Shown: piece after piece, positions 56,492 through 63,033 of the stretch
Layout of the letters: every line of letters starts with the position of its first letter
Position numbering within the stretch: the stretch's first letter is position 1
Source of the DNA: Phycisphaeraceae bacterium
Lineage (GTDB): Bacteria > Planctomycetota > Phycisphaerae > Phycisphaerales > Phycisphaeraceae
Assembly (NCBI GenBank): GCA_963674705.1
Contig: OY771506.1
Span: 3,136,001-3,200,000 of the forward strand
Length of the DNA stretch: 64,000 nt
Reading direction: 5' to 3'
The notes under the pieces: generated by a model
Told to the model about the DNA's origin: nothing
Database searches by the model: none
The model's input: only the letters and a program-made list of their open reading frames with translations
Translations under genes and position numbers: made by a program

Positions 56492-57184
56492 CTACGCTCC
56501 AGTTCTTTTGTGATGTTGGTTCGGCGGTTCCGCAAGCCGGGGGGTAGGCCAACATCGCGCTGGCGTCGGTCCGTAACCCTGAACTTGAACTTCTCGGCCG
56601 TGCTCGCCGGCGCGGGTGGCCTCGATGGCGGCATTGAGCGCCAGCAGGTTCGTCTGATCCGCGATATCGTTGATCACATTGATGATCTGGCCGATCTGTT
56701 CGCCACGCTTACCGAGTTCAGAAACGCTGGCGGCACTGGCGTCCACCACCTCGGCGATCGATTGCATGCCTAGGATCGTGTCTTTAATCACCTCGCCACC
56801 TTCCGAGGCAACACGCCCTGAGTCCTCAGCGGACCTGCTGCCTCGGTGCTCTTGCCTCCAACTTCGACGACACTGGCGGACATCTGCTCCACCGCGGAAC
56901 TGATCTGCAACTTCTGGTTTGCCTGCGTCAAGTGTCTGCTTCAAGTCAGCCAGCAGAGCCTGTGTGTCAAAAGTACCCTCGTTATTCAGTCGTGAGGTGT
57001 GGTTTTTGGCTTCATCGGCGACGGCGGTGAAGGACGCGGCTTTCTCGACCAGGCCGGCTTCCGGGGTGTGGTAGTACATATTCGCTATCACAGCGTAGTT
57101 CACCGCAACGAGGGAAAGGATCGCAAGCACGACGATCGCAATGATTCTGGTCCGTAGTGTGATTGAATGAAGGAAGTGACTCAT
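56492..57184 (-). pseudogene. Methyl-accepting chemotaxis protein remnant
   Basis: TM1 and the start of the sensor domain are joined directly to the signalling domain (IADQTNLLALNAAIEATRAGEHGR). An out-of-frame MCP segment is present and the C-terminal half is missing. Confidence 0.85.
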
Positions 57185-57440
57185 ACTCAAACTCACCTTT
57201 GCTGTTAAAGGCTTACCCCGCCCAGGAGTACTTCGCATCTGCAACGCTAACGCGCGAACAAGTGATCCCGCAGACAGGGTTTGGATCGGGTCTGGATATG
57301 AAAGACTTAATGCTATATTTGTTGATGTGGCGTGAGGTTATCTCGGGTATTGAGATCGGCAAATCTGTACTAACCTGTGGGTCACTCAGGTGAATCCACC
57401 TGCACTTCACGCTTGCAAATACAGTGCTATCATGATCTTT

Positions 57441-58820
57441 ATGCCCGACCTGTGGGAGCAAACCCGTCAAAAGCATCTCGTCGCCGCCCAGCCGTTGGCG
57501 GTTCGGATGCGTCCGCGCAGTTTAAAAGAATTTTCCGGCCAGCAACATTTTCTGGGTGAGGGCAAATTGTTGCGACGGATGCTTCAGGCCGACAGACTAA
57601 CCAGTGTCATCTTTTACGGCCCGCCGGGGACGGGCAAAACCACGCTCGCGGAATTGATCGCCGCTTATACCAAACGCCACTTCGATCGTGCGAACGCGGC
57701 CGCGATCGGCGTCAAGGACGTACGCGAGGTTCTGAATCACGCCAGACGCCGGCTGGAAGCGGACGGCAAACGCACGATCTTTTTCCTGGATGAAATCCAC
57801 CGGTTTAACCGTGCACAACAGGATGTTCTTCTGGGGGACGTCGAACGCGGCATCATTACCTTGATCGGAGCGACGACGGAGAACCCTTTCTTCGCGATCA
57901 ACTCGCCGCTGGTAAGCCGGTCCCAGGTTTTTCAGTTTAAGCCGCTGGATGAGGAGGCGGTAGGGGAGTTGGTCCGTAACGCGCTGAATGATGAAGAGCG
58001 AGGTTACGGCAAGTTGAACATCACGATCGACGACGACGCCATCGCGCATTGGGCGATCGCCTGCGATGGGGATGCCCGTCGTGCGCTGACGGCGCTGGAG
58101 ATCGCGGTGTTGTCGTCTGCCCCCCAAACTGATGGGCCCGACCAGCAGGCGGCCATCCATATCGATCTGGAAGTGGCCGAGCAATCGATCCAGCAGAAGG
58201 CCCCGGTCTATGATGGCACGGGGGACGAGCATTACGACGCGATCTCGGCGTTTATCAAGTCGATGCGAGGCAGCGACCCGGATGCGGCGCTGTACTGGCT
58301 GGCGAAGATGCTGCATGCGGGGGAAGACCCCATGTTCATCGCCCGGCGGATCGCGATCCTGGCAAGCGAAGATGTGGGCAACGCCGATCCGCAAGCGATT
58401 CAGGTAGCCGCCGCGGCGTACGAGATCACCCACCGGGTGGGATTGCCTGAGTGCCAACTCACCCTGGCTCAGGCGGTTACCTATCTGGCGACCGCCCCGA
58501 AGAGCAACGCAGTGACCCTGGCGATTGGGGCAGCCATGGAGGATGTGCGTAACAACCGGACCGTCCCCGTACCTATGGCCCTGCGCGACGGGCATTACAA
58601 GGGCGCCAAGCAGCTCGGGCACGGCCAAGGCTACCAGTATGCCCACAACAGCGAGACCGGCTTTGTGGACCAGGACTACCTCGGCGTTGAGAAGTCCTAC
58701 TACCAGCCGCGGGAGCGGGGGTATGAGCGGACGATCCTGAAGTACATGCAGTGGATCGACTCACAGCGTGTCAAGCCACGGCTGCCCGGCAAGAACGACC
58801 AGCAGCCGTCCGAGGATTGA
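57441..58820 (+). CDS. rarA: Replication-associated recombination protein A (MgsA)
   Basis: PLAVRMRP, GPPGTGKTT, DEIHRFN, GATTENP, SAFIKSMRGSDPDAA, SEDVGNADP, APKSN. Confidence 0.96.
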   Translation: MPDLWEQTRQKHLVAAQPLAVRMRPRSLKEFSGQQHFLGEGKLLRRMLQADRLTSVIFYGPPGTGKTTLAELIAAYTKRHFDRANAAAIGVKDVREVLNHARRRLEADGKRTIFFLDEIHRFNRAQQDVLLGDVERGIITLIGATTENPFFAINSPLVSRSQVFQFKPLDEEAVGELVRNALNDEERGYGKLNITIDDDAIAHWAIACDGDARRALTALEIAVLSSAPQTDGPDQQAAIHIDLEVAEQSIQQKAPVYDGTGDEHYDAISAFIKSMRGSDPDAALYWLAKMLHAGEDPMFIARRIAILASEDVGNADPQAIQVAAAAYEITHRVGLPECQLTLAQAVTYLATAPKSNAVTLAIGAAMEDVRNNRTVPVPMALRDGHYKGAKQLGHGQGYQYAHNSETGFVDQDYLGVEKSYYQPRERGYERTILKYMQWIDSQRVKPRLPGKNDQQPSED

Positions 58821-58980
58821 TACGCATATCGCCTGCTCGCCTGTTCCCCTGCTCTACCAACTCACACCTGCCAGTTTGGCGTAACAAAGCCTATCCTGCC
58901 GATGTAGATAGGGGGGATTGCGCCCTCAAAGCTGTATGCTGGCCTGAAACAGGCCTATAGTCGACAAGGAGGTCACTCTT

Positions 58981-60198
58981 ATGGTGCTCAGTTCACAAAC
59001 ACCCCGCGCAGGCATGTCCAGGATGTACATGTCCTCCAGGCGGAAGTCCGGTGCAAAGTGGGGCTGGTTGTTTTTGATCGGTGTGGCATTGGTGTCATTG
59101 TGGATGTTTGGCGTCTTCTCGGGCGGTGATTCCGGGGCAGGCACGGAACAAGGGGGGATAAGCCCGGCCAGTGCCAACGCCGATCCGGGCGCGTCAGGTG
59201 GGATGGCTCTGGATCCAGCCGAAGCCGACTCGCGCCGCCCCCAATCCGTAAATGAACTACCGCCTGCCAGCAGCAATCCGACGCAAGCCTCAGAGCCAGT
59301 CACGTTGACTATCGGTGTGGGAGAAACCCGCAACGCCACGACCACAACTTCTCAACCGCCAAGACAGTCGGTTGCTTCCCCGAACACGTCGGATCAATCC
59401 AACCGGTCGACGACACGCACTTCAAGCAACGCCGGCACCGAACTGAATCGCGGCATGAACCTGATCCGTGAAGGCCGGCTCGTTCAAGGCCGGCGCGTTC
59501 TAAGCCAACTGCTGACCGCTGATAGCGGGAGCCTCTCGGCGCTCGATGCCCAGACGGTTCGCGACACGTTAGCCAGCGTCAACAAGCAACTGGTCTTTTC
59601 CGATGAAGTGCTGCCCGGCGATCCGCTGGCCGAGTCCTACGTCGTGCAACGCGGTGACTACCTTTCGCGGATCGCGCCGAAGTATGGCGTTCCTTATCAG
59701 TTCATCGAGTTGATCAACAACACCCCGGCCGAACGGCTTCAGGCCGGCAAGGCGATCAAGCTGATCAATGGGCCTTTTAATTTACGTATCAGTAAACGTG
59801 ACTTCCGGATGGATGTTTATGTCAATGATAAAGACGGCACGCCGTTGTATATCCGAAGCTTCACTGTAGGTCTTGGTGAAGCGGATTCCACACCGATGGG
59901 ATCATTCGTTATTGCACCCGGTTCGAAGGTGGAAAATCCTTCTTGGCGCAACCCACGCACGGGTGAATTTTTCGGGCGTGACGATCCGAAGAATCCGATC
60001 GGTGAATACTGGCTTGCATTAAAAGGAACCGACCCGCAGTCTGAATCGCTTAGTGGTTACGGCATTCACGGCACGATCGATCCGGACTCCATCGGACGCG
60101 AAGCCTCGATGGGATGTGTCCGTATGAGCGACAAGGATATTAAACTTATTTACAATATGCTTGAGCCCGGCAAGAGCACCGTGCAGATCACCTGGTGA
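58981..60198 (+). CDS. LysM-domain L,D-transpeptidase
   Basis: TM anchor, low-complexity linker, YVVQRGDYLSRIA (LysM), YGIHGT...SIG..ASMGCVRM (YkuD). Confidence 0.92.
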   Translation: MVLSSQTPRAGMSRMYMSSRRKSGAKWGWLFLIGVALVSLWMFGVFSGGDSGAGTEQGGISPASANADPGASGGMALDPAEADSRRPQSVNELPPASSNPTQASEPVTLTIGVGETRNATTTTSQPPRQSVASPNTSDQSNRSTTRTSSNAGTELNRGMNLIREGRLVQGRRVLSQLLTADSGSLSALDAQTVRDTLASVNKQLVFSDEVLPGDPLAESYVVQRGDYLSRIAPKYGVPYQFIELINNTPAERLQAGKAIKLINGPFNLRISKRDFRMDVYVNDKDGTPLYIRSFTVGLGEADSTPMGSFVIAPGSKVENPSWRNPRTGEFFGRDDPKNPIGEYWLALKGTDPQSESLSGYGIHGTIDPDSIGREASMGCVRMSDKDIKLIYNMLEPGKSTVQITW

Positions 60199-60352
60199 TG
60201 AGGTTGTCGCCGACATTAGATCAAGAGCTATGGTGATTATAAAAATGTCAGGCTGGTTAAACTGGGTTATTTAAGGCCGTTAATCCTGATTACTCAGTAG
60301 TTTCCGGTCGGCGAAAAGAGGCTAAAAACAGCAAGAAATTGCCCGCAAACGG

Positions 60353-60381
60353 TTGCTTTACGGCACCGCAGGTTATATATT
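60353..60381 (+). promoter_or_regulatory. Sigma70-type promoter
   Basis: TTGCTT-17 bp-TATATT. Confidence 0.65.
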
Positions 60382-60387
60382 AATAAT

Positions 60388-60672
60388 GCAGATCGCGGAG
60401 GGTGAACGGAGGAGGAGAAACCACCGCCCACCTTAGCCGAGAGTGTCGTGTCTGAAAAGACACGTTTATTTTCGTGCTATCGCTGACTGCTGCACCACTG
60501 CTTGGAGGGGAATCCGTATGGTAGTGGTGTATTCACACGGCCCAAAACCGTGTGCAACAGGATTCCGTGATACAAGAGCCTGGGTATCTAAGCCCGAGGT
60601 TCGTATCCCGAAATAAGCTTTCTCCCCTCCGTGGTGACCGGGCGCGATGCATCGCCCCGGCCGCCTTTTTTT
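60388..60672 (+). ncRNA. Candidate large structured ncRNA of unknown family
   Basis: Promoter, nested long-range stems, four hairpins, possible pseudoknot and terminator. No long ORF. Confidence 0.65.
60633..60672 (+). terminator. Rho-independent terminator
   Basis: GGTGACCGGGCGCGAT-gc-ATCGCCCCGGCCGCC followed by T7. Confidence 0.85.
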
Positions 60673-60785
60673 ATGCGCCGACCACACTCATTCCCGAAGC
60701 GCTTTGTTGATGTAGGTATATACCCTTAGGTGCGCAATAGGTGCATATTTGGATTTGTGGAAATAACAACAATTCAACGGCAAGC

Positions 60786-61535
60786 TTAATCGCCCATCAG
60801 CACAAGTTCGTTTCGGATCGCCCGCAGCACCTGCAGCTGCTCAGACGACCACGCGGTTGGGGATGGCGTTGGGGATGGCTCATCATCATACCTGTCGTCA
60901 CCTAAGCCGGCGGATTTGGTCGCTTTGAGTTTGACCATGATCCGGTCACGCAACGCCCAGGCGTCGGCGACGCCCTCGACACGTCCCTGATTGAGCGCGG
61001 CTTGTGATTGGTCCTGGCCGCCACCCGAGCCGGCGGTTTCTACGATCAGGTCAGCGATACCGAAGTGGCGTTGGAGCGGGCCCTGGACGACCTTGACGTT
61101 CTGAACGTTTTCAAACGTGAAAGTCATTTCGTGGATGATCCAGATGCCCCGGCGGATACGCAGGCTGCGGTCACTCATCACGTACCACGTCGTGTCGTAC
61201 TTCAGATGAACCGCGACATAGGCGACGATGTCCGGCAAGACAGCCAAGGCCAACGCCGGTATCGCCAGCAGTATGCCCGCCACTGGCACCGCTATGGTTA
61301 ACACCAGCCAGCCGATGAAGATCGCGATGTCAATAATGAGTAGCCCGATCCAGAACCAGAGCTTCAGATACTTCAAAAAACCTATTGCGGGTTTGAACGC
61401 GTCCGGTTCTTCCCCGGGCTCGGTCGGCAGGGTGGGGGGCGTTTGAGGCACACGGAACCAGTTGGACAGAATCTGCCAGGTCCCGGTGTACAAAAACTCC
61501 GCCGCACGTTCGGTCTGTTTTTCAAGCGCTGCCAT
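60786..61535 (-). CDS. Bacterial PH-domain (bPH_2) membrane protein
   Basis: Two TM segments, then IRRGIW...E.T..F.NVQNV.V.QGPLQR.FGI..L.VETAG. Confidence 0.85.
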   Translation of the reverse strand: MAALEKQTERAAEFLYTGTWQILSNWFRVPQTPPTLPTEPGEEPDAFKPAIGFLKYLKLWFWIGLLIIDIAIFIGWLVLTIAVPVAGILLAIPALALAVLPDIVAYVAVHLKYDTTWYVMSDRSLRIRRGIWIIHEMTFTFENVQNVKVVQGPLQRHFGIADLIVETAGSGGGQDQSQAALNQGRVEGVADAWALRDRIMVKLKATKSAGLGDDRYDDEPSPTPSPTAWSSEQLQVLRAIRNELVLMGD

Positions 61536-62088
61536 CGGTCACCTCCCCACTTTGACGTTGTGACCGCATGGCTTTGACCTGCACCAGGATTTCACGCAAC
61601 AGTTCAAGTGCTTCATCCCGGCCGGATTCGGCATGTTGTTCGGTTGTGGTTTCAGATTCAGCGGATTGTTCTGCGGTGGTTACCCCTCGGCTGCCGCGCA
61701 TTTTTGCATAGAGGTAATCCCGCAGGCCCTGCGGGTCGCCGATGCCTTCGATCGCCATCTGTGCGCCGGATGAACCCGATGCGGTCTGCACCGAAACCGT
61801 CGCCAGGCCAAGCTGGCGTTGTATAATGCCGCGGGAAACATGGATGTCCTGGATACGCCGATATGTCAGGAATATCTCCCGTCTGAACAGCACGCCCCAC
61901 GACATGGTGATGCCATCATCATCGAACTTGTATCGCAGTGTGTGGTATCTGAAGATCAACGGCAGGATGAAAAAGGGAAAACCAACGACCGTTAACAGCG
62001 AGACAATGATGTAGTAATTCAACAATGCCCGGACCGGTCGGGTGGTTGTCTTTGGATCGAATGGTTGGGTGGGTGTATCCCTGGACAT
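61522..62088 (-). CDS. Bacterial PH-domain (bPH_2) membrane protein
   Basis: WGVLFRRE....Y.RIQDI....GIIQR.LGL..V.VQTASG. GGAGG RBS, overlaps the partner gene. Confidence 0.85.
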   Translation of the reverse strand: MSRDTPTQPFDPKTTTRPVRALLNYYIIVSLLTVVGFPFFILPLIFRYHTLRYKFDDDGITMSWGVLFRREIFLTYRRIQDIHVSRGIIQRQLGLATVSVQTASGSSGAQMAIEGIGDPQGLRDYLYAKMRGSRGVTTAEQSAESETTTEQHAESGRDEALELLREILVQVKAMRSQRQSGEVTDGSA

Positions 62089-62220
62089 GATGGTAGACCT
62101 CCAGCGGGATGAGCCTGTCAAAAGGGCCCATTGTATGGATAGTCGCCCCATGCGGGAAAAGATCGCACGTGGGATCATTATTTTCGAGCAATCAAGAGCT
62201 GATCCGACTGAATCGGCGCC

Positions 62221-63033
62221 TTATTCGATCGCCCTTTTGCGGTTCTGTGTCGGTAGCATCTTGGGGATGCCAAGGACGTCGGGCCAATAGGTCAGTTCGA
62301 CCGCTTCGAGGACTTCTGGATCGAGTCGGCCTCTCTGCGGCTGAGCACCGATCTCGGCGACTTTCGGCACAACGGCAAGCGATCGGACGCCGGTGAGTTT
62401 TTCAAGCCAGATGCGGTTGCCTGCGATCGAAGGGTCGTCCGCCTTGGCAGGATCGGGGATATACCCATTAATCACCAGGCCCGCCACTTTGCAGCCGGCC
62501 TGTTTGAGCAGTGCTACCGTCATCGCGGTATGGTTGAGCGTGCCCAATCCCGCACGGGCAACCACCACCACCGGGTAACCGATCGCCACGATCAGGTTCA
62601 GGACCGTGACTCTCGGGCGTAGAGGATCCAGCGGCACCATCAGCCCGCCGACGCCTTCCATCAGCACGGCATCGGAAGTCTGCTCCAGGAGATTGATACT
62701 GCGGGATAGTGTTTGCCAATCGATTGCTTCACCCGCTTCCTCGGCCGCCATCGACGGGGCAAGGGGCGCTGTGAAGCGGATCGGATTGATAACGTTTAAC
62801 GGTTGCTTGCAGTTAGCGAAGTGTGCCAGTGCTTCGGCATCCTCACTGACCAAACCTTCCCGGTCTTTGCGGCAGCCCGAGGCGAAGGGTTTACTGATAC
62901 CCAGGTTGATCCCGGGCAGTTGCCGGCGCAATGCCGCGGCAATCGCGCAACTGACCACTGTTTTGCCGACTTCCGTGTCGGTACCTGTGATGAACAGCCC
63001 CGGTGTCGATCTGTTTTCGGTTAATACCAGCAT
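62221..63033 (-). CDS. bioD: Dethiobiotin synthase
   Basis: FITGTDTEVGKT, KPFASG, EGVGG, LGTLNHT. Confidence 0.95.
   Translation of the reverse strand: MLVLTENRSTPGLFITGTDTEVGKTVVSCAIAAALRRQLPGINLGISKPFASGCRKDREGLVSEDAEALAHFANCKQPLNVINPIRFTAPLAPSMAAEEAGEAIDWQTLSRSINLLEQTSDAVLMEGVGGLMVPLDPLRPRVTVLNLIVAIGYPVVVVARAGLGTLNHTAMTVALLKQAGCKVAGLVINGYIPDPAKADDPSIAGNRIWLEKLTGVRSLAVVPKVAEIGAQPQRGRLDPEVLEAVELTYWPDVLGIPKMLPTQNRKRAIE

Follow-up and report, generated by a model that had tools for sequence, protein, structure and literature searches.

A clade-limited Phycisphaeraceae RNA combines a sponge-like 5′ half with a seed that it shares with a family-wide small RNA: a candidate self-masking regulator

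RsaI (RsaOG) of S. aureus is a 144-nt RNA that pairs with C-rich sRNAs through G-tracks and with ribosome-binding sites through a CU-rich region; in the accessible part of the report, a pseudoknot between conserved regions is proposed to limit access, and the two domains are reported to act independently (10.1101/278127). In B. subtilis, RosA, an RNA of about 229 nt, is described in the available portion of its source as sponging the C-rich RoxS and FsrA through three G-rich regions (PMC8216469). The multicopy LhrC1-5 RNAs of Listeria monocytogenes use redundant CU-rich sites to block translation of a cell-wall protein mRNA, and the accessible text mentions a structural rearrangement and that Hfq is not needed (PMC4132741). 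For Phycisphaeraceae, a literature search that covered few subscription journals turned up no description of regulation by small RNAs. Here, we describe an RNA of this family, D, that carries both G-rich tracts and a C/U-rich seed.

D is a stand-alone unit of about 285 nt on the plus strand (60388-60672) of the window, i.e., the whole 64,000-nt stretch of DNA that was analyzed (Table 1); its 5′ start position was deduced from the predicted promoter. The original prediction of a self-contained structured RNA with a TTGCTT-17-TATATT promoter and a strong terminator proved accurate on both signals. The promoter reads as described, and 12 of the 13 homologues introduced below match the pattern TTG-16/18-TA.WWT, while the spacer has an identity of only 36% (10 sequences); in the terminator, 13 stem pairs are invariant. 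A simple consensus scan reported neither of the two signals. The unit had also been placed between convergent genes, which is correct for the downstream but not for the upstream side. In the window, a downstream PH-domain gene converges on D, and the gene 3′ of D is convergent in 11, co-oriented in 1 and undecided in 1 of the 13 homologues. The upstream ykuD gene, which precedes D in 13/13 homologues, lies on the same strand as D. Because the downstream gene is co-oriented in a single homologue, we rejected a riboswitch or leader, in agreement with the original prediction. A mobile repeat or integration site was rejected as well, since the suggested check for dispersed copies returned a single copy of D in the 5.5-Mb genome, at a fixed position and with no duplicated end. 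Elsewhere in the window, an ORF at 56492-57244 (minus strand) with methyl-accepting chemotaxis-like segments looks frameshifted or truncated by eye.

Table 1. Features of the D locus and of related RNAs. Coordinates refer to the window unless preceded by G000:C1.
Feature	Coordinates	Strand	Remarks
LysM and L,D-transpeptidase (YkuD) gene, upstream neighbor	58981..60198	+	Pfam; co-oriented with D
Promoter, sigma-70 type (predicted)	60353..60381	+	TTGCTT at 60353-60358, 17-nt spacer, TATATT at 60376-60381
Helix P0, 5′ strand	60388..60398	+	Pairs with 60480-60490; closes decoy-like 5′ domain
G-rich tract 1, seed-complementary	60395..60406	+	Main predicted seed partner in 8/13 homologues
G-rich tract 2	60407..60420	+	Predicted seed partner in the window (0.98)
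Hairpin P3, variable	60435..60478	+	44% identity, yet a hairpin in single-sequence folds
Helix P0, 3′ strand	60480..60490	+	ACUG invariant
Hairpin P4	60491..60531	+	Tip is G-rich tract 3, GGAGGGGAA (60504-60512); lower stem covaries
32-aa ORF, rejected as gene	60518..60616	+	GGAGG 9 nt ahead of ATG in the window
Hairpin P5	60534..60554	+	96.7% of cells paired
Possible pseudoknot strand	60560..60566	+	Partner 60509-60515
Hairpin P6	60567..60612	+	Base conserved, tip variable
C/U-rich, anti-Shine-Dalgarno-like seed	60617..60631	+	15 nt, G-CUUUCUCCCCUCCG; invariant in 13/13
Terminator, intrinsic (predicted)	60632..60672	+	Hairpin 60632-60665 and T7; -22.4 kcal/mol
sRNA A (predicted)	G000:C1 about 4073550-4073640	-	No Rfam match
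Paralogue C, 150-nt RNA	G000:C1:1321645-1321800	+	Surfaced as weak second match of the D profile
RNA E	G000:C1 about 941566-941795	+	Promoter, GGAGAAAG repeats, terminator
Element F	G000:C1 about 2301850-2302010	+	Three seed-complementary tracts and terminator

Using BLAST, we found D in 9 of the 10 other genomes of the genus (71-97% identity) and in none of 14 other genera. One sister genus was added through synteny and two further homologues through a metagenome scan, giving a set of 13 sequences of 284-297 nt from one Phycisphaeraceae genus and one sister genus. A sequence-only model of D matched 11/143 family genomes, including a weak match in G055 that we rejected as a homologue; a structure model of 162 positions matched 10/143. 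At the class level, 1 of 149 genomes gave a 52-nt match (E = 0.024), and no convincing copy was found in this sample; 26 ykuD loci in other genera are without a D copy. No copy was found in a phage search, and plasmids gave two 34-nt chance matches. We also rejected 109 viral-contig pattern matches, which do not extend across the element, and nine non-family matches of an 18-mer, in which the upstream structure is absent. Within the homologues, identity is highest in the 5′ 45 nt (84%) and in the last 60 nt, which comprise the seed and terminator (94%), and falls to 44-57% in the variable hairpins, with 44% in P3, and to 30-46% in the flanks.

The original prediction offered three identities for the RNA, i.e., an uncharacterized noncoding RNA, a divergent 6S/Ms1-like RNA or a fold-back-repressed mRNA for a hidden 32-aa ORF. 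The ORF is indeed present, and in the window a GGAGG lies 9 nt ahead of its ATG, which speaks for a repressed, type I toxin-like mRNA. Its conservation did not hold up: the ATG is kept in 6 of 13 homologues, the reading frames span 32, 17, 29, 18 and >54 codons and encode unrelated peptides, and Pfam gave no match for the 32-aa ORF. In a relative with 97% identity, a 1-nt insertion shifts the frame to give 17 aa; this insertion is present in contigs of two of four sequencing runs. On this evidence, we consider a fold-back mRNA hardly credible, and a type I toxin mRNA was rejected because the short ORF is not conserved.

Ms1 RNA is described in the accessible parts of two reports as binding the RNA polymerase core (PMC4191392, PMC9130861). 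The size of D, its paired ends and its own promoter and terminator would fit a 6S/Ms1-like RNA polymerase binder. A separate 6S candidate elsewhere in the genome folds as a rod with a central bubble, whereas D is a multi-branched predicted fold, limited to a clade, modular, and related to seed and decoy RNAs; we therefore regard this identity as very improbable. The 6S candidate (G000:C1 about 3994540-3994735, minus strand) follows a LysM-like gene and is the only RF00013 match of the genome, with an E value of 2.3e-5 and 36 bits, below the cut-off of 46.4.

Of the three identities, the noncoding RNA is supported. Using cmscan with Rfam 15, we obtained no match at E<=5 for 58000-63000 and none at E<=10 for four D homologue loci. 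tmRNA, RNase P RNA and SRP RNA, the hallmarks of which had been reported as missing from D, were each found once in the genome and not at the D locus. The RNase P RNA match (G000:C1:3526071-3526582) is 512 nt long compared to a 367-position model and has long insertions. D (60388-60672) folds with -127.4 kcal/mol (z = -6.65), a value equaled by none of 200 shuffles, and a 296-nt span folded for each strand gave z values of -6.26 (plus) and -4.62 (minus). D has what defines a stand-alone sRNA gene, namely a kept promoter, a kept terminator and covarying helices, without a kept ORF. These results support that D is, very probably, a real RNA gene. No RNA data set was among the 15 sequencing runs listed, which speaks neither for nor against expression of D; the runs used left out X11, which has a small share, and the uncovered part of X8.

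The search for homologues and covariation that had been proposed yielded, in addition to the 13 sequences, helices that covary. Over the 68 pairs that were named, 92% of cells are paired, and compensatory changes occur in 12 pairs compared to 6.7 in shuffles (1/500); this signal is somewhat overstated because the structures were derived from the same 13 related sequences. P0 has compensatory changes in 4 of 9 pairs (0/500 shuffles), and an equivalent helix is present in the paralogue C. In the lower stem of P4, 6 of 8 pairs show such changes, while P5 shows one-sided changes in 3 pairs and compensatory changes in none. All hairpins named in the original prediction are found at their places, but the GNRA loop of one of them is not conserved. 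An inner long-range stem between TTATTTTCG and CGAAATAA has a pairing probability of 0 and is absent from the homologues. For the possible pseudoknot GGAAUCC/GGAUUCC, 93% of cells pair across the homologues, a level that 52 of 500 shuffles also reach; the homologues are thus compatible with this pairing, but it lacks statistical significance. The predicted pairing of the ends is a mixed case: the complementary tracts are in place, and the end-to-end helix, which has 11-13 bp with a bulge, has no compensatory change in either register.

Three G-rich tracts are present in 13/13 homologues, and the AAA that follows GGAG in them varies in 4 of 13. In tract 2, GGAGA is invariant and lies in a hairpin loop under the P0 fold, with no compensatory change. 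Between the seed and its internal partners, covariation was detected in 0 of 11 pairs, although tract 1 varies. The predicted folds depend on transcript length. In transcripts that stop just ahead of the seed, the probability of P0 is at least 0.93 in 13/13 homologues, and in full-length transcripts it is at most 0.01 in 12/13; at one intermediate length, it is below 0.5 in 5/13. In the P0 fold, the seed is predicted to be left free. In the full-length predicted fold, it is paired with tract 1 or 2, it is 8% unpaired in the full-length D of the window, and freeing it costs 2.6-12.9 kcal/mol across the homologues (7.7, i.e., about 8, in the window).

Two features escaped the original prediction: the 3′ pyrimidine tract of D is an invariant seed that also occurs in a family-wide sRNA, and its 5′ half has a homologue in a separate G-tract RNA. 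Letter for letter, the seed of D matches the one in this sRNA, called A. The 13-mer CTTTCTCCCCTCC has four exact copies in the genome, each immediately before a terminator hairpin, while 0 of 16 one-mismatch copies precede a terminator; the three copies outside D follow a ROK kinase gene, htpX and hsp20. In the family, the exact seed 14-mer is present in 127 of 144 genomes, mostly once, compared to one match for a reversed control. Among 174 matches, we read 30 loci, of which 16 are from one genus: a G precedes and a terminator follows in 30/30, and one conserved terminator stem stands behind the seed in 29/30. The seed 13-mer occurs in 43 of 251 phylum genomes; in the non-family loci read, a terminator follows it in 0 of 28, and the motif is background there. 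A is a predicted sRNA of about 90 nt that usually follows the ROK gene and has a TTGA-17-TAAAAA promoter; an A-type copy was read in eight genomes of the genus, and its seed is predicted to be single-stranded. In the genus, a TTATCCACA box, which we take to be the DnaA-box consensus, lies just upstream of the A promoter. Seed plus terminator is also found in the 3′ untranslated region (UTR) of htpX (G000:C1 234321, minus strand; also G009 and G010) and in that of hsp20 (G000:C1 5104651, plus strand; also G004). These copies are possibly stress-linked 3′-UTR sRNAs. A dispersed intergenic repeat with CGTTGGGGGG..AGAAAGCCA is partly complementary to the seed, with sites, among others, at G000:C1 2806184, 3015692, 3021710, 3368285 and 5326102.

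To identify candidate targets, we compared the seed complement with start regions. Scanning the genome by raw duplex energy gave mainly G-U pairs and repeats, and these results were set aside. Gene starts and PEP-CTERM genes were called from a simple ORF set and regular expressions rather than annotation, which gave 395-436 PEP-CTERM genes, or about 400, in the genome. Among 24 start regions with up to two mismatches to the seed complement, 17 belong to PEP-CTERM genes, while the best of 60 permuted motifs reached 14 and generic Shine-Dalgarno (SD) starts include 170 PEP-CTERM genes among 753. Seven of eight tested PEP-CTERM candidates passed TIGR02595. With SD strength controlled, GAGAAAG is present in 22 of 314 PEP-CTERM leaders and in 4 of 1,720 others. 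This enrichment ranks fifth among 145; the top four 7-mers are purine-rich and not exact seed complements, and PEP-CTERM leaders are purine-rich in general. As in C/U-rich anti-SD sRNAs, an invariant seed is complementary to ribosome-binding sites, and the match statistics suggest that A is a likely translational repressor of genes for exported surface proteins. In a search of titles and abstract beginnings with few subscription journals, we found no account of base-pairing sRNA control of PEP-CTERM genes.

The counterpart of the seed is found in D and in three further RNAs. Paralogue C consists of a promoter, a GCAG start, three seed-complementary tracts and a terminator with the loop GAGGGGAGA, and is present in 10/10 genomes of the genus and in the sister genus that also carries D. 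Over its full length, C can be aligned with D nucleotides 1-145, and a C-like fold of these nucleotides is seen for 12 of the 13 sequences; in this fold, the 5′ end of D pairs with nucleotides 93-103 to form P0. The joint alignment places P4 of D opposite the terminator hairpin of C. At E<0.002, the C profile recovers no more than 4 of the 13 D sequences. In its sequence, D is a chimera in which two extra hairpins separate a C-type domain from an A-type seed-terminator. E contains four to seven exact GGAGAAAG repeats between a kept promoter and terminator; it is present in 10/10 genomes of the genus and in all 11 genomes of clade g1 plus the sister genus, and 13 of 144 family genomes were matched compared to one for the control. 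E is likely a multi-site sponge. F was matched in four of five genomes tried. When the genome was scanned for clusters of 8-mers complementary to the seed, E, C and F were the densest, and all end in a terminator. D ties for places 5-7 with 7-mers and 6-12 with 8-mers, and its tracts have the weakest seed complementarity of the four. C, D, E and F are confined to nearly the same clade, and Rfam gave only chance matches near A, C, E and F. In G076, an unrelated-looking E-like unit has GAGAAAGC repeats. In G006 and G007, tandem GGAGAAAG arrays lie ahead of ORFs, with no terminator; these could possibly be multi-site target leaders.

Because GGA motifs recur in D, C and E, these RNAs, and mostly E, might sponge a CsrA paralogue in the manner of CsrB/RsmZ. 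The CsrA consensus is ANGGA, and CsrB/RsmZ sponges carry numerous copies of it in the loops of hairpins. In E, a span of 380 nt contains 6-9 ANGGA, the genome has three csrA matches, and CsrA is found in 143 of 144 family genomes. This family-wide range contrasts with the clade-limited range of the RNAs, however, and the repeated unit (GGAGAAAG or GAGAAAGC) is an exact seed complement, with several units of the E-like RNA of G076 having no GGA. In D, ANGGA motifs are few, and the tracts are mostly paired in both folds. There is no Rfam Csr/Rsm match, and the main csrA follows fliW, which encodes a protein antagonist of CsrA. We consider a CsrA sponge quite improbable. Of the three csrA homologues, one follows fliW and two are divergent; two per genome are typical of the family.

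D shares with G-rich sponges several kept seed-complementary tracts and a co-occurring C-rich sRNA, and we think it probable that D is part of a pairing system of C/U-rich seeds and G-rich tracts. In its simplest form, D would titrate A by its three tracts, as C, E and F would, and its own copy of the seed would have no mRNA targets and serve only as a lock that determines the threshold for binding. A pure sponge would explain that the 5′ half of D resembles C in alignment and fold, that C, D and E have a common clade range, and that the seed is buried in the predicted full-length fold. A lock could drift together with the tract it pairs with, but the seed of D does not vary and has the same letters as that of A, while tract 1 varies. 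Moreover, cofolding gave little support for A on the 5′ half of D. For this pair, 12 of 25 shuffles were as good; for A with C (-9.3 kcal/mol), 23 of 25 were as good, and for A with full D, 2 of 25, in part by U-tail pairing that is probably an artifact, all with a method that cannot model loop-loop pairing. Altogether, we find a pure sponge unlikely. That the seed of D does not covary and is identical to that of A points to a constraint in trans.

A further reading that assigns the seed a role in trans is that D is a precursor, cut by, e.g., RNase III in or near the seed/tract duplex to give an sRNA of about 60 nt without any switch. The 3′ 60 nt of D are laid out like A and like the htpX and hsp20 3′-UTR copies, RNase III was found in the genome, and the accessible text on CJnc190 offers a precedent (PMC8687705). 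However, the duplex has 11-13 bp with a bulge, an internal cut would destroy the seed, and the covarying helix P0 belongs to the alternative fold. A precursor is in our view distinctly unlikely.

We favor, with slightly better than even confidence, that D is a self-masking dual sRNA and sponge that would repress PEP-CTERM ribosome-binding sites only while its seed is free. In this model, which builds on the folding predictions, the 5′ domain would fold first via P0 and leave the seed single-stranded; new D molecules could therefore pair with purine-rich ribosome-binding sites, predicted to be those of PEP-CTERM mRNAs. At equilibrium, the seed would pair back onto tract 1 or 2, and D would be silent. 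Occupation of the tracts by sibling seed RNAs, or cleavage by a nuclease, would make the seed available once more. With a decoy-like 5′ half and a seed at the 3′ end, D is thus predicted to switch itself off. The helix with covariation belongs to the fold that leaves the seed free, and the seed has kept the sequence of A instead of drifting with its internal partner; from this, we infer that both folds matter and that the seed acts in trans. The cofolding of A with C and with the 5′ half of D, which was no better than that of shuffles, and the weak seed complementarity of the D tracts count against this model. Hfq and ProQ were not found in the genome, so that pairing would rely on G-C-rich seeds. 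More tentatively, one seed may run an Hfq-free network in this clade that sets the translation of many of the approximately 400 PEP-CTERM genes, with A, the htpX and hsp20 3′ ends and D as carriers and C, D, E and F as decoys. In such a network, D would be bistable and born active, a fusion of a sponge and its sRNA that works as a timer or threshold switch.

If true, this would assign specific regulators, open to testing, to the approximately 400 PEP-CTERM genes of the genome, and it would reveal, purely by sequence-based prediction, a network of sponges in a bacterium in which neither Hfq nor ProQ was detected. D would also be a natural example of an sRNA joined to its antagonist, of interest for the evolution of sponges and sRNAs and for self-limiting synthetic RNA regulators. 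Among the literature matches listed for self-masking sRNAs, there was no direct precedent.

Compared to the systems described at the outset, as far as the available portions of their reports describe them, D is most similar to RsaI in that one stand-alone RNA has both G-tracts and a C/U-rich region (10.1101/278127). RsaI is from a different phylum and has 144 nt compared to 285 in D, which has no Rfam match; in contrast to RsaI, the seed of D itself is the seed of the sRNA that its tracts would bind. RosA has the sponge logic of C, F and the 5′ half of D but, in the accessible text, no C-rich region of its own, and binding is shown for RosA and inferred for D (PMC8216469). By Rfam, which gave no match, D is unrelated in sequence to RosA and RsaI. 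The CU-rich sites of LhrC1-5 are the analogue of the D/A seed, in an RNA without homology to D that has three such sites and for which the accessible text names no built-in decoy domain (PMC4132741). For processing, CJnc190/CJnc180 of Campylobacter jejuni is the analogue; as described in the available part of the article, the antagonist of CJnc190 is antisense in cis, whereas the antagonist-like domain of D lies on the same strand and has paralogues in trans (PMC8687705). CsrB/RsmZ, like E above all, are stand-alone RNAs with repeated GGA-containing units; the unit here is the seed complement GGAGAAAG, and there is no Rfam match. By Rfam, D is a member of none of these systems, and by analogy it resembles RsaI and RosA in the way it would work.
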